A stretch of 46,337 nt of DNA from a virus (Duplodnaviria; Heunggongvirae; Uroviricota; Caudoviricetes), in IMG/VR virus record IMGVR_UViG_2740892428_000001, positions 1 through 46,337 of that record. The stretch is one strand, 5' to 3'. A program made the position numbers and the translations under genes. This document shows positions 614 to 46,337 of this stretch, one piece after another (within the stretch, counting starts at the first letter, position 1; every line of letters starts with the position of its first letter). The notes below the pieces were generated by a model, which saw only the letters and a list, made by a program, of their open reading frames with translations, was not told the origin of the DNA and made no database searches.

Positions 614-1204
614 ATGTCTCGAATTTTTGCTTACTGTCGGATATCAACTCTGGATCAGACCACCGAAAATCAACGCCGGGAAATCGAAAGTGCAGGTTTT
701 AAAATCAAACCTCAGCAAATAATCGAAGAACACATTAGCGGCTCAGCAGCAACCAGTGAGCGTCCTGGTTTTAACCGGTTGCTTGCTCGCCTGAAATGTG
801 GTGATCAATTGATTGTGACAAAACTGGATCGCCTTGGTTGTAATGCAATGGATATCAGGAAAACAGTGGAACAACTGACCGAAACAGGTATCAGAGTGCA
901 TTGCTTAGCATTGGGGGGCATTGACCTGACCAGTCCAACAGGAAAAATGATGATGCAAGTAATTTCAGCAGTCGCTGAATTTGAACGAGACCTTTTACTT
1001 GAACGCACTCATTCCGGGATAGTAAGAGCCCGGGGCGCAGGGAAACGTTTTGGTCGACCACCTGTGTTAAATGAAGAACAGAAACAGGTGGTATTCGAAC
1101 GAATTAAGTCAGGTGTAAGTATAAGTGCCATTGCCCGGGAATTCAAAACCTCGCGGCAAACCATTTTAAGAGCCAAAGCAAAACTTCAGACACCTGACAT
1201 ATAA
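614..1204 (+). CDS. pin: serine recombinase, Pin/Hin/Gin-type DNA invertase
   Basis: 196 aa; N-terminal catalytic motif YCRISTLDQ with nucleophilic Ser, resolvase/invertase core, C-terminal HTH ([16 protein letters not shown]); sits beside the tail-fibre genes as in Mu, P1, e14 and Qin. Confidence 0.85.
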
Positions 1205-1735: not shown

Positions 1736-2440
1736 TTATCCGATATCGCTTTGGGAAGTTGATAACAACTTCAATTCTGACTCAAGTTCATCAACTCTTT
1801 CAGTCAGTTTCTGGATATGGTGAATCAGTGGAACAACCAGACGTTCGTACATTACACCTTCGGCAACAAGGCCATTGCTGGAAATGGTTTCCGGTGCATC
1901 ATCTTCGTTGGCTGGTCGCCAGTGAACAAACTGAGGGGCAATTTCTCCTACTTCCTCGGCAATCAATCCATAGAATCCCCAGTCACGCCTGTCATTTTCG
2001 CATTGCGACCTGTACCACACAGGGCGCATCCTGAAAATGAGATCGGCGTGCTCTGAATCTATCGTCTCTACTGAATGTTTATAGCGGATAGACGATGTTG
2101 ACCGCAGCACAGACGAAATTGCAGGGTCAGGATTAAGATAAAGATTTGCCGCCGCTGTAGTTGTGCCCAATCCCCATAAATAAAACGCTTCACGGCCAGT
2201 CAGCGGGTAAAAATCTCCGCCATAACGACCACTTTCCAGATCGTTCACTTCCACTTTGTTTTTCAGCTTATTATCCACTTCTGTTTTTGTGTATCTGGTA
2301 CTGATATCCTGCTTTGCACTGTCCATATCAGTCTGAAGCGTTGATACTTTTACGTTAATTGAGGAAATATCTTCCTTTGCCTTACTGACATCTCCCTTTA
2401 GCGTTTTGATGTCATCAGGAATTACTGTCGATGTAGCCAT
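1736..2440 (-). CDS. tail-fibre-like protein with C-terminal intramolecular chaperone (peptidase S74-like) domain
   Basis: 234 aa; N-terminal coiled-coil-like segment; C-terminal region (RPVWYRSQ...DWGFYGLIAEEVGEIAPQFV...GLVAEGVMYERLVVPLIHHIQKLTERVDELESEL) matches the pattern I recall for the endosialidase/tail-fibre self-cleaving chaperone domain. Confidence 0.55.
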   Translation of the reverse strand: MATSTVIPDDIKTLKGDVSKAKEDISSINVKVSTLQTDMDSAKQDISTRYTKTEVDNKLKNKVEVNDLESGRYGGDFYPLTGREAFYLWGLGTTTAAANLYLNPDPAISSVLRSTSSIRYKHSVETIDSEHADLIFRMRPVWYRSQCENDRRDWGFYGLIAEEVGEIAPQFVHWRPANEDDAPETISSNGLVAEGVMYERLVVPLIHHIQKLTERVDELESELKLLSTSQSDIG

Positions 2441-2449
2441 TTTTCTTCC

Positions 2450-2731
2450 TCACATCCAGCTACGGAGTTGATGCTCAACAGCAACCGCGTGTTCATCGAA
2501 TAATGACGATATTTGCGAATCATTAATGATGCGCACATTTACAAAATATCCGTCCTCCTTAACACATACCGGCTCGCCATCTTCAGTAAGTTCTCCGGTT
2601 TCTTTGTACACATTACCTATCACGTCAATAAGAATATCATCCTGCATCGACTCGTCATCATAATAGCCAATGCTCTCCATAAAGGCCGAAAAGTCGGCCC
2701 TGTCTGCAAATTTGAGTGTTAAATCTTTCAT
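2450..2731 (-). CDS. hypothetical protein, translationally coupled to stf
   Basis: 93-aa acidic ORF whose start overlaps the stf stop by 4 nt (2728-2731); no recognisable domain. Confidence 0.4.
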   Translation of the reverse strand: MKDLTLKFADRADFSAFMESIGYYDDESMQDDILIDVIGNVYKETGELTEDGEPVCVKEDGYFVNVRIINDSQISSLFDEHAVAVEHQLRSWM

Positions 2732-5130
2732 TTAATACTCCCCCCCATTTGCGCATCAGTTAATTCTTTATGCCAGAGACGAAGATTTCTCAAATGGCCG
2801 AATAGATGACGAGTTCCCGATGTGGCTTGACCTCCAATTCGAATAAAGGTCCGTGTTTTTACGCCCGTCCACTCCGTTTTCATAGTTTTAGTAGCCTCAC
2901 CGTTAGAAACTACTCGTTTAGTACCATCAGAATAAATATTAAAACCACCAATGAATTTTCGAACATCAGTTCGACCAGCAAACACACTAGAAACGTAAGT
3001 ACTTGTCGACGCTTTATAAGTTTGCATATAAAGCTGACCGTAATATTTCTCAGTTGTGTTAAAAGCGTATGTAATTGACTCAATAGGTGGCACACCAGAA
3101 AAATCAAAAATACGCGGTGCTACATTAGGAGGAATATCGCCCCAATTTCTATTAACCTCGACAAGACACGTAAGCGGTCTATTATAGATATTATTTTCAG
3201 TTGGGATCGTCACCATATCACTGGAGCGGGTTGCGGGTGCAGTTGTCGTAATAACAAAAGATGAAGCACATCCGCCGTTTTCAAATTGTGGTGTTGCAAG
3301 GTAAATATAATCTCCCGCTTCAGTTATACCACCTTTTTTCGGCGCATACTGAATCATTGCGCCAATTAAGGTTTCACCTTCAACAGCTTCTATAGTTGCC
3401 TCATAGAAAATCCACCCTGTAACCGGATCTTTAGTTGCAGTAGCTGCTATTCTATTGGCTGCTCCGCCAGTTTTTTCTATTATCAGAGTTCCGAAAGTTA
3501 AATAAGCATCTCCTAAAAATGTATAAACCGACCCATCGTATTTTTCAAAACGCAAACGACAACGAAGACCATCAGGAGCTTTAACCCTGCATGAAACAGT
3601 GCAATACTTATTATCGCCACTAACATCAATCCCCCGGGATGCACTGCATGTATGCAGACTAAGTGCAGATGATTGTCCTGTCATATTATCTTTTGTTCGC
3701 ATTTTGGCATATGAAAAACCAAATTCATCAACACCATTATTAGTTTTATCGATATTGCTGGTACTCGTCCATTCAGCGGGAGTATTGGATTTAACAAAAT
3801 AGTTAGTGCGCTGTCCTTCAATCAATAAACCTTCTTTTTCAAATCGTGGTTCATCAATTTTAGCAACACTAAATACGCCTGATTTATTGATATATGTGGC
3901 AGTTGATGCGCGTTTAAACTTAACAACCTTGTCGCCAGGCATCGTTATTTCATCATCACCAATAACAATTTTTTTATATGACGGCGAAAAGCCCGTAATC
4001 ATATCCAGTGAATCGTTAAACGGTATCCACACATCAGGCAGTGGCTGTAAGACATATTTATACGGCTCTGCTGCCTGGCTTGCATACTCTCTGGCTGCGT
4101 CTTCACTTGCTTTAGCTGCTGTCTGGCTTGCTGCCGATGCTTTCGCCGAGTTCGCCGCTGCAGTCTCGCTTGTCTTTGCATTGGTTTCACTGGTTTTTGC
4201 TGCTGTTTGACTGTTGGCTGATGCAGTGGCAGAAGCAGCCGCCGCGCTTGCAGAACCAGCTGCAGCACTCTCGCTTTGGGCTGCTGCATCCTGACTGTTT
4301 TTCGCCGCAGTTTCGCTGGTTTTGGCATTCGTTTCGCTGGTCTTCGCTGCCGTCTGGCTGGACTTTGCGTTAGTTTCACTCGTCTTCGCAGCTTTCTGGC
4401 TGTTAGCCGCAGCAGTTGCTGATCCAGCTGCTGAAGTCGCAGAACCGGCTGCCGCGCTCTCGCTTTGGGCTGCTGCAACCTGACTGTTTTTCGCCGCAGT
4501 TTCGCTGGTTTTGGCATTCGTTTCGCTGGTCTTCGCTGCCGTCTGGCTGGACTTTGCGTTAGTTTCGCTCGTCTTTGCGGCTGTCTCGCTGTTTTTCGCG
4601 TTGGTTTCTGATTTTTTGGCTGCTGTCGCGGAGTTTGCCGATGCAGTCTGCGAGGACGCTGCCGCCTGTGCGCTGTTAGCTGCATTCGTTTCTGAGGTTT
4701 TCGCCGCGTTCTTCGATGATGCCGCTGCAGTTTCGGATTTCTTTGCCGCCGCTGCGCTCTGAGAGGCGGCTTCGGCGTTGCGTGCCGCTTCTTCCACCAT
4801 TGCCTCAAAACGACGCAATGCCTCCGGCATGACATCATCTTCCGTCATGGCACCGAGAAAATCATTCAGCGTACCTGGTCTGGAACCTTCATAGACGGTA
4901 ATGGTTCCGGCATGTGAAGGCGGAAAACCTTCAACCAGCAGGGTGACGCTGTACTGGCCATGCTCAACATCCATGCTGTAACGCCCGGCTTCATCCGGAT
5001 TTTCAGAGGCCACCGTGTTCACCAGTACCGTGGTGCTGTTACGCTTTGCCTTCAGTTGAATAGTGCAGTTCTGTATTGGTTTTCCCGCACCATCTTTCAG
5101 CACACCTGAAATCTGTACTGCCATATTCAC
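2728..5130 (-). CDS. stf: side tail fibre protein, mosaic: lambda Stf-like N-terminus plus Ala/Ser/Thr-rich repeat shaft plus unrelated C-terminal domain
   Basis: 800 aa; N-terminus (MAVQISGVLKDGAGKPIQNCTIQLKA...) near-identical to lambda Stf as recalled; central TAAKTSETNAK-type low-complexity repeats; C-terminal ~330 aa unrelated to lambda Stf. True start may be the Met 2 codons downstream (5124). Confidence 0.85.
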   Translation of the reverse strand: MNMAVQISGVLKDGAGKPIQNCTIQLKAKRNSTTVLVNTVASENPDEAGRYSMDVEHGQYSVTLLVEGFPPSHAGTITVYEGSRPGTLNDFLGAMTEDDVMPEALRRFEAMVEEAARNAEAASQSAAAAKKSETAAASSKNAAKTSETNAANSAQAAASSQTASANSATAAKKSETNAKNSETAAKTSETNAKSSQTAAKTSETNAKTSETAAKNSQVAAAQSESAAAGSATSAAGSATAAANSQKAAKTSETNAKSSQTAAKTSETNAKTSETAAKNSQDAAAQSESAAAGSASAAAASATASANSQTAAKTSETNAKTSETAAANSAKASAASQTAAKASEDAAREYASQAAEPYKYVLQPLPDVWIPFNDSLDMITGFSPSYKKIVIGDDEITMPGDKVVKFKRASTATYINKSGVFSVAKIDEPRFEKEGLLIEGQRTNYFVKSNTPAEWTSTSNIDKTNNGVDEFGFSYAKMRTKDNMTGQSSALSLHTCSASRGIDVSGDNKYCTVSCRVKAPDGLRCRLRFEKYDGSVYTFLGDAYLTFGTLIIEKTGGAANRIAATATKDPVTGWIFYEATIEAVEGETLIGAMIQYAPKKGGITEAGDYIYLATPQFENGGCASSFVITTTAPATRSSDMVTIPTENNIYNRPLTCLVEVNRNWGDIPPNVAPRIFDFSGVPPIESITYAFNTTEKYYGQLYMQTYKASTSTYVSSVFAGRTDVRKFIGGFNIYSDGTKRVVSNGEATKTMKTEWTGVKTRTFIRIGGQATSGTRHLFGHLRNLRLWHKELTDAQMGGSIK
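4268..4645. repeat. in-frame tandem duplication (2 x 189 bp) inside stf
   Basis: 4268-4456 and 4457-4645 are near-identical over ~125 bp (ctctcgctttgggctgctgca...gactttgcgttagtttc); period 189 bp = 63 codons. Confidence 0.8.
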
Positions 5131-40979: not shown

Positions 40980-41106
40980 TTTCATTACTGCAAATGCCCC
41001 TGCGGGGGCATTTATGGAAACATAATTTACTCAATAATCGCCGGATGGTGATGGCTTCCTTTTACCAGAATTCAGCGCGGTACAGCGCATATACGTGGAG
41101 AACAAT

Positions 41107-41643
41107 ATGTCATTTATTAAAACTTTTTCCGGGAAGCATTTTTATTATGACAGGATAAATAAAGACGACATCGTTATTAACGATATCGCGGTTTCCCTTT
41201 CAAATATCTGTCGCTTTGCAGGACATCTTTCACACTTCTACAGCGTCGCCCAACATGCGGTGCTTTGCAGCCAGCTGGTACCGCAGGAATTTGCTTTTGA
41301 AGCGTTAATGCATGATGCAACAGAAGCATATTGCCAGGACATCCCCGCACCACTGAAACGCCTTCTTCCTGACTATAAACGGATGGAAGAAAAAATAGAC
41401 GTCGTCATCCGTGAGAAATACGGATTACCCCCGGTTATGAGCACGCCCGTGAAATATGCCGATCTCATCATGCTGGCAACCGAACGCCGCGATCTCGGGC
41501 TTGATGATGGCTCTTTCTGGCCTGTACTGGAAGGTATCCCGGCGACAGAGATGTTCAAAGTTATTCCACTGTCACCAGGCCATGCCTACGGGATGTTTAT
41601 GGAACGTTTTAACGAGTTATCGGAGTTACGCAAATGCGCATGA
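41107..41643 (+). CDS. HD-domain phosphohydrolase (YfdR-like 5'-deoxynucleotidase)
   Basis: 178 aa from the ATG at 41107 (GGAG RBS); HD motif (SHFYSVAQHAV...LMHDATEAY); the six-frame ORF starts 4 codons earlier on GTG. Confidence 0.7.
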   Translation: MSFIKTFSGKHFYYDRINKDDIVINDIAVSLSNICRFAGHLSHFYSVAQHAVLCSQLVPQEFAFEALMHDATEAYCQDIPAPLKRLLPDYKRMEEKIDVVIREKYGLPPVMSTPVKYADLIMLATERRDLGLDDGSFWPVLEGIPATEMFKVIPLSPGHAYGMFMERFNELSELRKCA

Positions 41644-41996: not shown

Positions 41997-42616
41997 TGAC
42001 CACATTTACCGATAAAGAACTGATTAAAGAAATCAAAGAGCGTATCAGCAGCCTAGAGGTTCGAGACGATATTGAGCGCCGTGCTTATGAAATTGCTCTG
42101 GCATCGCTGGAAGAGGAGCCGGTGGCATGGCTACATTCAGACAATGGCTTAGGTATTCCAGCAATAACCAGGAGTAAAAACATTGCTGACAGTTGGTTAT
42201 CAAAGGGCTGGTATGTTCAGCCGCTATATATAGCCAAGCCAGTGCCGGTGGTGCCAGATGCTCGTCCGTCTTTAAATAATGGCATAGTCGGTTTTGATGA
42301 AGGCTGGAACGCCTGCCGCGCCACCATGCTTCACGGTGTCAAACCTGTAAGCCAGACTTACAAGTTGAACAAGCTGTCTGGCAACTCTCCGGTAACTCCG
42401 GATGGTTGGATAAGCTGTAGTGAGCGAATGCCGAACGATAAACAATATGTTTGGTGTTGGGGTAAGTCTTACGGCTGGACTGAGTGCGATACCTTCGAAG
42501 GGTATTACGATTGTTCGAGAAACAAATGGTGGGCAGTTACTGACAATGGGGAAGAACCGGCATCGAAAGTAACCCACTGGATGCCGCTACCGGAACCGAC
42601 GCAGGAGGTGAAGTAA
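41996..42616 (+). CDS. DUF551-like protein (YfdT-like)
   Basis: 206 aa; C-terminal DGWISCSERMP...VTHWMPLPEP resembles DUF551; stop overlaps the next start (TAATG). Confidence 0.55.
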   Translation: MTTFTDKELIKEIKERISSLEVRDDIERRAYEIALASLEEEPVAWLHSDNGLGIPAITRSKNIADSWLSKGWYVQPLYIAKPVPVVPDARPSLNNGIVGFDEGWNACRATMLHGVKPVSQTYKLNKLSGNSPVTPDGWISCSERMPNDKQYVWCWGKSYGWTECDTFEGYYDCSRNKWWAVTDNGEEPASKVTHWMPLPEPTQEVK

Positions 42617-42810
42617 TGAACAACTTAATGACAACTAAACAAGTCGCCGACTTCTGTGGCGTTTCAGTATCGACAGTTCTTCGCTGGAACAGCGTAAACC
42701 GGAGAACTGGCCAGAAATACAGACCTGATTTTCCAGATCCTGATATTAAATCATGCCCAAATAAATGGGCGTCACGCAAGATTTACAGGTTTGCAGGAGT
42801 TATTGAATGA
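42616..42810 (+). CDS. AlpA/Xis-like excisionase or small HTH regulator
   Basis: 64 aa; MTTKQVADFCGVSVSTVLRWNS resembles the AlpA-family HTH; position just upstream of the integrase module. Confidence 0.6.
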   Translation: MNNLMTTKQVADFCGVSVSTVLRWNSVNRRTGQKYRPDFPDPDIKSCPNKWASRKIYRFAGVIE

Positions 42811-43350
42811 CGTATGTGAACAGACACGTCTATGGCACGGTCAGCGTCTGTCTGAGCGATACAGGCACGGACGTTGCTATCCACAAGCATTAATTATCAG
42901 GAAACTGGGACCGCTCCCCAAGCATGATGTATTGAAACGAAGACATTTACACAATGATAGAAAAAATACTAAAATAATGATTCAACTCAAAGAGTTGATG
43001 TACATAAAATGCCTCACCGGCATAGGTGAACATTTTCATGGGTGGGGAAAAACATGATGTGGACCACACTTCCCCCTCTAAAAAGAGGGGAAAGAGTATG
43101 GTTTTGTTGTACACTAAAGGCCATATGGTTTTTTATTATGTTTGGATAAGATAAATGAATGTAATAGCATTTAATGAAATAGAATCTAGCATCGCCGCCA
43201 ATGATCAGGTTGATTCTATCTGCATTGAATTAACAACATTTAATCAAGATAATGTCATTTCATTTGAAAGTAAAAAGAAAAATAAAGAAATTCTTGATGC
43301 ATTTTTTGAAATAATAAATACTGATATAGTTTTCGACTAGGTAATTAGCA

Positions 43351-44946
43351 ATGGCTGAAGCAGCAAAAAAAACTCCACAAAAGCTGAATGAAAAAAAAGG
43401 CTCAACATCAGCATCATCACTTGAGATTGTGAATTCACGACAATCAAAAGATATTTATCTTGGATTGTGTGGATATGTTGGATGTGGCATGAGAACGATA
43501 AACAAAATTATCGAAGAGATATCCAAAGAATGGGGGTATAATGTTGTACACATCCGCATAAGTGCGCTTATGGAAAACCCATTATATTTTGAGCCAGCAG
43601 CACTGGAGGTATCCGAAAGCACACAAGTTAATAGACATTTAAAACTCCAGGATATTGCCAATAAGCTTCGTAAACATTACAAAAAAAATGAGTTGCTTGC
43701 AGAAGCTGCTATTGCAGCAATCGCAGCAGAGAAAAATAATATTGATTATAATAATGATGAATATAAAGGTACTGTCTTCATCATTGATCAATTCAAAAGG
43801 CCGGAAGAAATAGAGTTATTCAGAGTTATATATCAGCATAATTTCTATTTATTAGGAGTTTTGCGCGATTTAGATTACCGAATTCCGAATCTCATTGCTG
43901 ACGAATCGACAAAGGACGACCTTCATTTAATTATCAATATTGATAATAAATCCTCTGATCCGTATGGACAAAGAACCGGGGAAACCATTCTTGATTCAGA
44001 TTTTTTTATTAAAAATAACTTCAGCCAAAAAAGTGAATTAAAGAAGAAGATTGATCGGTTTTTCGGTCTTATTCATGGCAAAAATGGTTTAACACCAACT
44101 TTTAACGAGAAAGGTATGTATGCTGCCTTTTCAACATCATTACAATCAGCTTGTTTATCACGTCAAGTAGGGGCTGCACTGTTTGATGATGAAGGGAATT
44201 TGCTTGCCGTGGGTAAGAACGACGTACCTAAAGCTGGTGGCGGGTTGTATAGCAGTGATGATTTTGATAACGATCATCGATGCGTTCACAAAAGTGGTAA
44301 GTGTTATAATGATGCAAACAAGCTAAAAATTAAAGACCGTATAAAAAGCATATTATCAACCGAAGTAAGAAATGTATTAGGTATTTCCGCAGGACAAACT
44401 GTTGCCGATATTAATATAACACGACTTCTAAACAAATTAGATAATATTGCAGAAGGCATTTACAAAGACAGCAAAATATCAAGTGTAATGGAGTATTCCA
44501 GATCAATTCATGCTGAAATGGACGTCATTACATCAATGGCTAGAAAACAAAACGGCGATACTAAAGATAAAATTCTTTTTACGACAACCTATCCCTGCCA
44601 CAACTGTGCAAGGCATATTGTCGCAGCTGGAATAAAAAAAGTAGTATATATAGAGCCATTTGATAAAAGCCTTGCTCTTGATCTGCATAATGATGCAATA
44701 ACAAAGAACGAAGAATCATCCAAAGTAATATTTTGTGATTTTGAGGGGGTATCACCCCGCCGCTACCATAAATTTTTCAGACCAACGGATGAACGTAAAG
44801 ATGATAAAACAGGGACTGCAAATAAATTTAATGCTCGCTACAAAAATCATATAGATGTTCAATATCTTGATGATTATAGAAAGTATGAGACTGTTGTAGC
44901 TAAGAAATTTATAAACGAGATTGCTAAACCAGAGTCTCAGCCATAA
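43351..44946 (+). CDS. kinase-like / deoxycytidylate (CMP/dCMP-type) deaminase fusion; candidate AvcD/DCD-family nucleotide-depleting anti-phage protein
   Basis: 531 aa. N-terminal P-loop-like segment GLCGYVGCGMRT (aa 38-49) and hhhhD segment VFIIDQF; C-terminal deaminase fold with SACLSRQVGAALFD, zinc-binding H387-A-E389 and P415-C416-H-N-C419. Confidence 0.7.
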   Translation: MAEAAKKTPQKLNEKKGSTSASSLEIVNSRQSKDIYLGLCGYVGCGMRTINKIIEEISKEWGYNVVHIRISALMENPLYFEPAALEVSESTQVNRHLKLQDIANKLRKHYKKNELLAEAAIAAIAAEKNNIDYNNDEYKGTVFIIDQFKRPEEIELFRVIYQHNFYLLGVLRDLDYRIPNLIADESTKDDLHLIINIDNKSSDPYGQRTGETILDSDFFIKNNFSQKSELKKKIDRFFGLIHGKNGLTPTFNEKGMYAAFSTSLQSACLSRQVGAALFDDEGNLLAVGKNDVPKAGGGLYSSDDFDNDHRCVHKSGKCYNDANKLKIKDRIKSILSTEVRNVLGISAGQTVADINITRLLNKLDNIAEGIYKDSKISSVMEYSRSIHAEMDVITSMARKQNGDTKDKILFTTTYPCHNCARHIVAAGIKKVVYIEPFDKSLALDLHNDAITKNEESSKVIFCDFEGVSPRRYHKFFRPTDERKDDKTGTANKFNARYKNHIDVQYLDDYRKYETVVAKKFINEIAKPESQP

Positions 44947-44952
44947 CTGTTT

Positions 44953-44993
44953 CCACTCCTTATTTCTGTAAGGATAAGGAGTGGTATTTTTAT
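44953..44993 (+). terminator. intrinsic terminator after the deaminase gene
   Basis: 11-bp stem CCACTCCTTAT/ATAAGGAGTGG with a 10-nt loop, followed by TATTTTTAT. Confidence 0.6.
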
Positions 44994-45098
44994 AAGTATA
45001 ATGACTGCCTCTTCATAAATCAGCAAATCGAAATATCAGCAACCAGTTAATTATAATCCAAGAATCATTACTATTTTCTTACTCTGTATGTCCATTCA

Positions 45099-46337
45099 TT
45101 ATTCAATAGGCTGTCTGTTGGAACCTAAATTAGTGTAAGTAAGAATCGAATCAACCCTATCCCACCATGCCTGATAGGCTTTACGCTGTTCTTCTAGATA
45201 ATCACTCTTATCATAAACTTGCCATACCCCTGGCAGTTTATGACCGAGCATTATTTCAGCAATATGAGGCGCAGTAAGATCAGAAAAGTTTGTTCGTGCT
45301 GTTCGTCTCAAATCATGAAGAGACCAATGAGGAAATTGATACCCCAAACGCCGCCATGCGTACTGCATTAAATTGTAAGGCAGCGACTGCAATGATGTCC
45401 GACCAACTGGCTCCTTGCTTCCTTCCTTGGTAAAAAGCATATCGGAACCGTTGTTCATAGAGATAACGTATTTTATAAGCTCTTCAACCGGTTCAATAAT
45501 GGGGCGCTTTAGCGGTTCGCCTGTTATATCACCTGTCTTATGTCGTTCTGGCGGTACAGTCCATACCTTATTAATGAAATCAAAATCATCCACCCTGGCA
45601 GTAATCAGCTCTGAACTACGACAGCCGAAATGCAGCAATAGTTTAATGAAGGCCCGGTATTTGGGAACCATTCGAGAACCATCGATCGCAGCATAAAGAA
45701 TTTTAATTTCATCGTGTGTCAGAAACCGTTTCTTCTGACCTTTACGGATATCCATATCTTTACCCGTGATGTCCGACAGCGGGCGAGTTTCAATAAACTT
45801 TCGCTTATACGCCCAGACATGGGCCTGCTTTGCGTTAATTAGCAATCGGTCTGCTATTGCCGGAGTCTTAGTGCTAAGAGGCTCCAGGACCTCTAACCAA
45901 TCATGCAATGTAGCTGCATCATGAGGGATACTCCCGATTTTAGAGAACAGATGCAGTTCAAATGAGCGGAGTATCTGCTCAGAACCTTTTTTATTTTTTA
46001 CACAATATGCTTCATACCAGGCACGGATCACAGACTCTACCGTCATGGCTTCAGTAGCTTTGCGTTTTTCTGCCTGCCTGACCAATCGTGGATTGCGGTT
46101 TGACTCAAGTTCACCACGAAGACGGATAACTTCTTCTCTGGCCTCTTTTAATCCAGTTGCCGGGTAAGTTCCGATATCAAGTCGCTCGCCTTTCCCTGCC
46201 CATTGATAACGATATTGGAACACTACGCGACCTTTCGGTGATACTCTGACAGACAGACCATCACGATCTGATTTAACCAAAACCTTATCGCGTTCCTTTC
46301 CAACGACTGAACGCAACCACGCATCAGACAGCGCCAT
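45099..46337 (-). CDS. int: tyrosine integrase (P4-like family); 5' end may continue beyond the window
   Basis: 412-aa ORF running to the window edge; N-terminal arm-binding-like region (GLSVRVSPKGRVVFQYRYQWAGKGERLDIGTYP) and C-terminal catalytic region with R...HxLRR...Y (HDLRRTARTN...GH...Y). Confidence 0.85.
   Translation of the reverse strand: MALSDAWLRSVVGKERDKVLVKSDRDGLSVRVSPKGRVVFQYRYQWAGKGERLDIGTYPATGLKEAREEVIRLRGELESNRNPRLVRQAEKRKATEAMTVESVIRAWYEAYCVKNKKGSEQILRSFELHLFSKIGSIPHDAATLHDWLEVLEPLSTKTPAIADRLLINAKQAHVWAYKRKFIETRPLSDITGKDMDIRKGQKKRFLTHDEIKILYAAIDGSRMVPKYRAFIKLLLHFGCRSSELITARVDDFDFINKVWTVPPERHKTGDITGEPLKRPIIEPVEELIKYVISMNNGSDMLFTKEGSKEPVGRTSLQSLPYNLMQYAWRRLGYQFPHWSLHDLRRTARTNFSDLTAPHIAEIMLGHKLPGVWQVYDKSDYLEEQRKAYQAWWDRVDSILTYTNLGSNRQPIE

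Follow-up and report, generated by a model that had tools for sequence, protein, structure and literature searches.

An AvcID-type dCTP deaminase module in the excisionase–integrase slot of a lambdoid E. coli prophage, and a possible small-protein gene at the avcI locus

The window analysed here is a whole stretch of viral DNA of 46,337 nucleotides (nt) (IMG/VR record IMGVR_UViG_2740892428_000001; Caudoviricetes), the sequence of a lambdoid E. coli prophage. Near its right end, between an excisionase-like gene and the integrase gene, lies a gene for a 531-residue protein, here called avcD, preceded on the same strand by a 61-codon open reading frame (ORF), here called the avcI equivalent. By profile searches and alignment, the product of 43351-44946 is a member of the described AvcD/dCTP-deaminase phage-defence family and is not new. 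It is very probable that the two genes form an anti-phage module of the AvcID, or ‘dCTP deaminase’, type, which occupies the xis-int gap as cargo and acts as published. We also propose, with an even chance of being right, that the avcI locus is a conserved small-protein gene, or specifies a dual-function coding RNA, beyond being a non-coding RNA.

The protein scores 464.5 bits against the NCBIfam equivalog NF041025, “anti-phage dCTP deaminase”, whose curated cutoff is 400, over model positions 2-437 of 437, and it matches the PADLOC dCTPase model with an expect value (E) of 2.7e-164 (546.5 bits). The Pfam domain dCMP_cyt_deam_1 matches residues 252-434 (E 7e-15), phage family phrog_9198 matches the protein end to end, and an identical protein, WP_001589610.1, already bears the RefSeq name anti-phage dCTP deaminase. 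Pairwise alignment with the characterised AvcD of enterotoxigenic E. coli (ETEC) strain H10407, encoded on the 5.8-kb plasmid p58, gives 61.8% identity over 529 residues. The protein does not qualify as a housekeeping dCMP deaminase (ComEB/Cd), as it reaches 40.3 bits against TIGR02571 (ComEB), for which the cutoff is 219; its extra 250-residue kinase-like domain also sets it apart from the single-domain dCMP deaminases. An earlier sequence-only reading of this DNA had pointed to the ORF, on the plus strand with an ATG start, and had likened its product to the AvcD/DCD family, adding that the system would be a described one if the match held. The ORF is present as it said, and the match holds.

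In the protein, a P-loop-kinase-like N-domain covers about residues 30-245, a zinc deaminase domain about 250-480, and residues 509-525 form a C-terminal helix. A search of PDB sequences returned single-domain dCMP deaminases only and no AvcD structure, so the evidence for the fold is taken from structure prediction, which gives an adenylate-kinase-like N-domain joined to a dCMP-deaminase domain. Such a fusion, in a protein of more than 350 residues, is the architecture of the AvcD family. The motifs singled out by the sequence-only reading, namely GYVGCGMRT without Lys, HAE at 387-389 and PCHNC at 415-419, are all there, with their key residues in invariant columns of a 35-sequence family alignment. 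The invariant columns of that alignment include C40, G41, G44, D146, Q147, H387, A388, E389, P415, C416, H417 and C419, and G46 is nearly invariant. Within the Walker-A-like loop, for which the family pattern is CGxxGxG[IMV][KR][ST], GYVGCGMRT occupies residues 41-49 and has Arg48 where many relatives have Lys. The P-loop without Lys is a family trait and nothing peculiar to the window protein, which possesses both the degenerate Walker A and the Walker B of AvcD enzymes.

Published mutants give these residues a meaning. The V. cholerae enzyme, DcdV/AvcD, is inactivated by S52K (Walker A), D162A/Q163A (Walker B), E384A and C411A/C414A (Hsueh et al.), and the E. coli AW1.7 enzyme by G29A/C30A and by two zinc-site Cys mutations (Tal et al.). 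T49 of the window protein shares an alignment column with V. cholerae S52, and the spacing from E389 to C416 to C419 (+27, +3) is the same as that from E384 to C411 to C414. Since G44-C45 is the sole adjacent Gly-Cys pair in the loop, it is likely to be the counterpart of AW1.7 G29/C30, an equivalence drawn from the pair itself and not from alignment. The V. cholerae protein P0094 was tried as a stand-in for the numbering of VC0175 and was rejected as a different paralogue, S52 alone being matched and later positions being offset; motif spacing was therefore used for the comparison with the V. cholerae mutants. P0094 (521 residues) is a second AvcD-type paralogue present in V. cholerae strains, closer to V. 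parahaemolyticus P0071 (551 residues) than to VC0175, and its numbering matches that of VC0175 only up to S52.

In the deaminase domain, the HAE and PCxxC residues align with the active site of T4 Cd, that is, with the catalytic Glu and the zinc ligands. Where ordinary dCMP deaminases have the allosteric G[YW]NG, the window protein has GKND at residues 288-291 (GCND in V. cholerae), with G288, N290 and D291 invariant. Between avcD and its 90% relative, the proportion of nonsynonymous differences (pN) is 0.05 and that of synonymous differences (pS) 0.46, by which measure avcD is under strong purifying selection.

The family is large, with more than 5,600 clusters at E < 1e-10. Among 5,426 complete E. 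coli genomes, 41 hold at least 80% of 42600-45100 and 49 hold at least 80% of the avcI-avcD stretch. Relatives are located on ColE1-like plasmids, on integrative and conjugative elements (ICEs) and on IMG/VR viral contigs, and the module is thus one of mobile elements. A search of the INPHARED phage collection gave no full-length avcD match; the gene instead turns up in prophages and on IMG/VR contigs. Some E. coli strains from cattle and pigs (H38-H40, e.g. NZ_AP042480.1) have the module split by an insertion of the IS4-like element IS421, so that the matches come in two pieces spanning about 3.2 kb.

The sequence-only reading had avcD sitting alone in the gap, and here it was mistaken: the 61-codon ORF stops 10 nt before the avcD ATG. 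This ORF accompanies avcD at every related locus. On p58 it also has 61 codons (186 nt) and lies 12 nt from avcD; on an E. coli ICE it has 62 codons and on a 4.6-kb plasmid 60. In five further relatives an upstream gene for 58-84 residues is called by independent gene callers. Apart from p58, all 12 other distinct relatives tabulated, including L115, show the same arrangement, with gaps of 3-76 nt. Hsueh et al. describe the antitoxin, DifV or AvcI, as lying immediately 5′ of the deaminase gene in the same orientation, co-transcribed with it, with a minimal length of 152-174 nt and a coincident small ORF; according to the same authors, the V. parahaemolyticus, P. mirabilis and ETEC homologues each have a small upstream ORF that inhibits the cognate enzyme. 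The element of the window has this layout, being directly 5′ of avcD on the same strand, within the range of about 150-220 nt, and containing a small ORF.

How would the module act? Enzyme activity, trigger, antitoxin function of the RNA and defence phenotype are inferred from the characterised homologues. In the AvcD-type enzyme a nucleotide-binding domain, like that of P-loop kinases but degenerate, is fused to a zinc dCMP-deaminase domain. By homology, AvcD and the upstream avcI element would both come constitutively from a single transcript, and avcI RNA, abundant and short-lived, would hold the enzyme inactive post-translationally. An infecting phage that shuts off host transcription would let avcI decay, and the freed AvcD would convert dCTP and dCMP to dUTP and dUMP, so that the deoxycytidine nucleotide pool would collapse and phage DNA replication would stall. 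For the homologues of this family, which was described in 2021-2022, the published data are as follows. The ETEC homologue, 62% identical to the window protein, deaminates dCTP and dCMP and protects against phage. The system is activated by rifampicin, which arrests transcription, and not by spectinomycin, which arrests translation, and T7 escape mutants map to the RNA-polymerase inhibitor gp5.7. Mutants of the V. cholerae system that no longer respond to AvcI are E123K, A126T, K201R, K511E and Q514R. The level of avcI is 20-60 times that of avcD from one transcript, for a cause that the literature leaves unexplained.

Several observations weigh against this account. The closest experimentally tested homologue is that ETEC protein at 62% identity, and defence spectra vary between homologues. 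No convincing sigma-70 promoter is definable within the portable module. The avcI-equivalent RNA folds no better than shuffled sequences (z -0.26), and for eight subfamily members RNAalifold predicts one 6-bp helix and almost no conserved RNA structure; the RNA-antitoxin step is therefore unsupported by the sequence analysis made here. In addition, the upstream element shows the substitution pattern of a protein-coding sequence, to which we return below. An Rfam search at permissive thresholds gave two sub-threshold chance hits and no known RNA family over avcI. One hit resembling isrC, an Hfq-binding small RNA, lies at 42997-43118 on the minus strand, opposite the stretch that immediately precedes the small ORF. 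It scores 20.7 bits where the gathering score is 39 (E 0.39), and chance is its most likely origin.

The closest known system is AvcID itself, of V. cholerae and ETEC, which has the same two-domain enzyme, the same catalytic and P-loop residues, the same loss of the allosteric motif for deoxynucleotides, a same-strand upstream element of about 186 nt abutting the deaminase gene, and carriage by mobile elements. The window copy differs in being in a prophage xis-int slot, not in a genomic island or on a small plasmid, and in being known here by sequence. The E. coli AW1.7/U09 ‘dCTP deaminase’ (Tal et al.; PADLOC dCTPase, NF041025) is of the same hidden Markov model (HMM) family as the window protein. 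Mutations in its kinase motif and zinc site both abolish defence, it was cloned with native upstream regions, and its activation is tied to phage interference with host RNA polymerase. The AW1.7 protein differs in having 576 residues and in being described as a single-gene system with the upstream element unmentioned, and it is likened to the window protein by HMM and not by pairwise identity. The dCMP deaminases of S. mutans (2hvv), phage T4 (Cd, 1vq2), cyanophage S-TIM5 (4p9c) and PBCV-1 (bi-DCD, 7fh4), and ComEB, are without the kinase-like N-domain; the housekeeping and viral enzymes retain the allosteric dCTP/dTTP site, and their role is in dTTP synthesis and not in depletion. Bacterial dGTPases and human SAMHD1 deplete nucleotides by a different chemistry, as triphosphohydrolases, and the vertebrate (d)CTP deaminase CDADC1 has tandem deaminase domains and no kinase domain. 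Published AvcID resembles the type III toxin-antitoxin systems (ToxIN, CptIN, TenpIN) in having a protein toxin, an abundant unstable RNA and release on transcription shutoff. It differs by the absence of tandem RNA repeats (a point also noted by Hsueh et al.), by a toxin other than an endoribonuclease, and by the conserved ORF that makes up the ‘antitoxin’ region. The window module lacks the repeat RNA and endoribonuclease toxin of a ToxIN-like system; no tandem repeats are evident in its 186-nt element on reading by eye, with no repeat-finding tool.

What, then, is the conserved ORF? In the published accounts that we found, including a 2025 review, AvcI is a non-coding RNA; a coding role may be stated elsewhere. 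The original authors compared four small ORFs only and saw no similarity. The window ORF belongs to a divergent enterobacterial subfamily, which includes the ETEC and P. mirabilis elements, of 61-63 residues ending in ...I(I/V)(F/L)D, whereas the small ORFs of Vibrio AvcID end in ...LxW. The subfamily comprises 30 database clusters that align nearly without gaps at 22-82% identity, with M1, N16, F50, I53, I58 and D61 invariant. All 30 are labelled hypothetical protein and none falls in a Pfam or NCBIfam family; in PHROGs the match is phrog_9966. At 26% GC, the frame of 43155-43340 contains 0 in-frame stops, against 8 and 14 in the other frames. Substitutions at codon positions 1, 2 and 3 number 35, 26 and 77 in three independent pairs of the subfamily (p 1e-7), with pN lower than pS for each pair (e.g. 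0.12 against 0.73 for L111/L112). The stop codon TAG overlaps an invariant Shine-Dalgarno-like sequence, AGG(T/A) (AGGT in the window), 8-12 nt before the avcD ATG, which suggests translational coupling of the small ORF and avcD.

The wider family was surveyed at 80 diverse loci, one genome per species, by taking the longest same-strand ORF within 320 nt upstream of the deaminase gene. This ORF had at least 50 codons at 80% of the loci, against 24% on the opposite strand and 18% in shuffled sequences. Many of these ORFs have a C-terminal motif in common, roughly A-(I/L/K)-x-x-(I/V)-L-x-(R/A)-A-x-K-L-x-W-stop, found from Vibrio, Shewanella, Pseudomonas and Pantoea to Simkania and Bdellovibrionales. 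A terminal Trp is present in 35 of the 80 ORFs, including L068, which lacks the rest of the motif, and in 4.4% of 2,465 control ORFs. Conservation extends to the middle of the protein (NV[IV]xF) and to the N-terminus. Examples are L023 2792-2974, L115 1248-1424, L071 4522-4758 and L034 4544-4834 (loci L008-L085).

Is it the amino acid or the nucleotide that is conserved? The Ala at position -6 is encoded by GCA (9), GCT (7), GCG (7) and GCC (6), codon positions 1 and 2 having entropies of 0.59 and 0.37 bits and position 3 one of 1.94 bits. All four GCN codons are in use for the Ala at -14, and the Leu at -3 is encoded by CTA, TTA, TTG, CTC and CTT. Read from these alignments, codon usage at the conserved positions matches the prediction of coding selection, and synonymous sites are saturated. 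Nine close pairs differ at 136, 104 and 207 sites at codon positions 1, 2 and 3 (p 8e-9). A profile built from the upstream ORFs alone matched small ORFs directly downstream of the deaminase gene, with E down to 2e-15, and these matches fell in loci without an upstream one. In all, a family member is upstream at 38 loci and downstream at 19, or 57 of the 80, and 705,000 residues of six-frame ORFs contained no significant profile hit elsewhere. The published probe primers for V. parahaemolyticus AvcI (ATG GTT ACA AAT TTA AAT... and ...CAG AAA ATT CGT TGG TAA) carry a start codon at one end and a stop codon at the other, and the RNA studied in that species thus spans a whole Trp-terminal ORF; another V. 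parahaemolyticus allele ends in ...SLIDQASKLGW.

Homology between the subfamily of the window and the Trp-terminal family is weakly supported and unproven by these comparisons. The window ORF is the best hit of the Trp-terminal profile in the whole window, yet with E 0.035, and hhalign of the two groups gives P 0.0016 and a probability of 16%, the two being aligned on NV(I/V)xF at equivalent positions.

From these data we propose that the avcI locus has a coding function, in a gene of about 53-66 codons. Its product would have a central NV(I/V)xF and a C-terminal amphipathic helix, with an invariant terminal Trp in most lineages and the ending ...I(I/V)(F/L)D in the enterobacterial subfamily of the window; the gene would be on the same strand as the deaminase gene and adjacent to it, on either side. 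The whole of this proposal, taken jointly, could as well be wrong as right. In our reading, the RNA antitoxin model probably stands, and the same locus also encodes a conserved peptide, which may be a partner protein or a cis-acting leader.

It is tempting to take the first of these options further and to regard the 61-residue product as the deaminase's cognate partner, inhibiting it, stabilising it or acting as a sensor, instead of or besides the RNA. The module would then count as a protein-protein (type II-like) or a mixed system; this is possible, and we hold it tentatively. The open frame at low GC, the codon-position pattern, pN below pS in all pairs, the nearly gapless alignment with invariant residues and the paucity of conserved RNA structure all speak for it, as does the confinement of the small gene to one or the other side of the deaminase gene. 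The AlphaFold2 model of the 61-residue peptide alone has a disordered N-part and a helix at 37-55, at low confidence (pLDDT 52.7), as expected of a partner that folds on binding. Experiments on the homologues point both ways. In V. cholerae, avcI constructs with ATG changed to TAA or without the ribosome-binding site are still inhibitory, and AvcI RNA is reported, as cited in a 2023 paper, to bind and inhibit AvcD in vitro. However, translation knock-outs are reported for the V. cholerae element only, and the ETEC and P. mirabilis ‘ORFs’ were merely co-expressed, each inhibiting its cognate enzyme only. Activation by rifampicin and not by spectinomycin argues against a labile protein antitoxin, and the weak homology between the two groups of small ORFs also counts against the idea.

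A cis-acting leader is unlikely. Translation of the small ORF, possibly with nascent-peptide pausing at its stop, would set the translation of avcD, or else would shape the processing and stability of avcI RNA, with no free functional protein. In the Trp-terminal family conservation is strongest in the last 17 or so codons, abutting the invariant Trp and the stop; in the subfamily of the window, the stop overlaps the Shine-Dalgarno-like sequence; and the excess of avcI over avcD from one transcript would be accommodated. However, this proposal is pure inference, other conserved motifs lie in the middle and at the N-terminus, and at the 19 loci with the small gene downstream of the deaminase gene a leader role is impossible. 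Finally, although the protein has its C-terminal fold and motifs in common with dCMP deaminases, the T4 enzyme among them, the same prophage has a 5′-deoxynucleotidase gene (yfdR), and toxin/antidote logic could stabilise an element, it is very improbable that avcD encodes a metabolic dCMP deaminase feeding dTTP synthesis, as T4 cd does, or a prophage-stabilising toxin-antitoxin with no defence role, given the kinase-like fusion, the lost G[YW]NG site, the equivalog-level match to the defence family, the low ComEB score, the presence of the same module on small plasmids and ICEs without phage genes, and the protection against phages conferred by tested homologues.

Table 1. Features of the avcI-avcD module and its flanks in the window
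Feature	Coordinates	Strand	Basis or remark
Excisionase-like helix-turn-helix (HTH) protein, 64 residues	42616..42810	+	94%-identical counterpart in phage cdtI annotated excisionase; left flank of the slot
Hairpin CCCCCTCT-AAAA-AGAGGGG, left edge of the portable module	43072..43090	+	Cross-context homology begins here
Invariant element TTTTGTnGTAnAnTnA with -10-like hexamer TACACT (43110-43115)	43102..43117	+	Cross-context alignment
avcI-equivalent element, 61-codon ORF (phrog_9966)	43155..43340	+	Position, orientation and size of the AvcI antitoxin
avcD-type anti-phage dCTP/dCMP deaminase	43351..44946	+	ATG start, 531 residues; ORF list, profile searches, alignment and predicted structure
Walker-A-like loop C40-G-Y-V-G-C-G-M-R-T49	43468..43497	+	Alignment columns, published mutants
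Walker-B-like D146-Q147 (IIDQ)	43786..43791	+	Invariant in the family alignment
H387-A388-E389, zinc-ligand His and catalytic Glu	44509..44517	+	Pfam/PDB comparison, family alignment
P415-C416-H417-N418-C419, zinc-binding PCxxC	44593..44607	+	PDB comparison, family alignment
Intrinsic-terminator-like hairpin, 13-bp stem and T-run	44953..44994	+	Directly after the avcD stop; stem and T-run at 44953-44984
Tyrosine integrase with arm-binding, central and catalytic domains	45099..46337	-	Convergent with avcD; right flank of the slot, prophage end

The flanks listed in Table 1 bear out the sequence-only reading in its placement of the gene in a xis-int cargo slot and in its assignment of a terminator of its own. 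The window ends at the integrase start codon, and in the identical chromosome, that of E. coli O111:H8 SF4-1, the host gene that follows is yjjG. The cargo region has a GC content of 0.34-0.35, against about 0.46-0.58 for most of the prophage. In phage cdtI the xis-int gap holds an unrelated 710-residue gene on the opposite strand, and the slot is therefore a variable cargo site, in which the module is ordinary cargo of a lambdoid E. coli prophage. That cdtI gene (L116, NC_009514.1, 3819-5951, minus strand) encodes a hypothetical protein, orf33, and is itself a candidate defence or exclusion gene.

Comparison with relatives on conjugative elements and Rep3 plasmids delimits a portable unit from about 43072 to the avcD stop, and with the terminator the two-part module spans about 43072-44994. 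After the avcD stop every lineage has its own GC hairpin. Those of distant relatives are unrelated in sequence, while the hairpin of the window recurs in its 90% relative, with a compensatory change in an arm. At the left end, the CCCCCTCT hairpin is retained in the closest relatives, others having A-run/T-run sequences instead; it is a candidate terminator that may keep read-through from the xis operon out of the module. The element TTTTGTnGTAnAnTnA is conserved in prophage, plasmid and ICE contexts, with TAAAAT in relatives for the -10-like hexamer, and judging by this conservation could be a promoter or a 5′ leader. A promoter scan and the cross-context alignment gave no convincing -35 to pair with the conserved hexamer. 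The good sigma-70-like site that the scan placed at 42946-42975 was rejected as the module promoter, since by cross-context alignment it is outside the portable module.

Other features of the prophage deserve mention. It encodes a YfdR-type 5′-deoxynucleotidase (41095-41643, plus strand) and is inserted beside the host pyrimidine 5′-nucleotidase gene yjjG (L001 10124-10801). Three deoxynucleotide-metabolising genes thus lie within about 7 kb, yfdR and yjjG being some 6.8 kb apart in L001, which is probably a coincidence. At the other end of the window, genes at 614-1204 (plus strand), 1736-2440 (minus) and 2728-5130 (minus) include one for a Pin/Gin-type serine invertase (Resolvase and HTH_7 domains) adjoining tail-fibre and tail-fibre-chaperone genes, an arrangement that suggests invertible host-range switching in the prophage.

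The identification of avcD in itself matters little, as the defence family is already described, covered by curated HMMs and named in RefSeq. It does entail a correction of annotation, as the module has two parts, and its small ORF and the excisionase gene are missing from some RefSeq records. In NZ_CP077442.1 (L001, strain SF4-1) both are unannotated, leaving a 734-nt gap; NZ_CP013663.1 (L003, strain GB089) does list the small ORF, under the label hypothetical protein and the accession WP_040091656.1. Only the protein-coding signature in a supposedly non-coding antitoxin might come as a surprise to a specialist. Purifying selection at the amino acid level on this element, from Gammaproteobacteria to Simkania and Bdellovibrionales, together with the side-swapping of the small gene relative to the deaminase gene, may mark a gap in the published model. 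If the avcI locus is a small-protein gene, the accepted type III (RNA antitoxin) model would be incomplete, and the product of 43155-43340 would be an unrecognised component of the system. Should the peptide prove to exist and to function, one would have to revise the models of infection sensing by AvcID and the single-gene definition used by defence-system finders, and to reinterpret ‘AvcI’ complementation with the ORF expressed from a ribosome-binding site.

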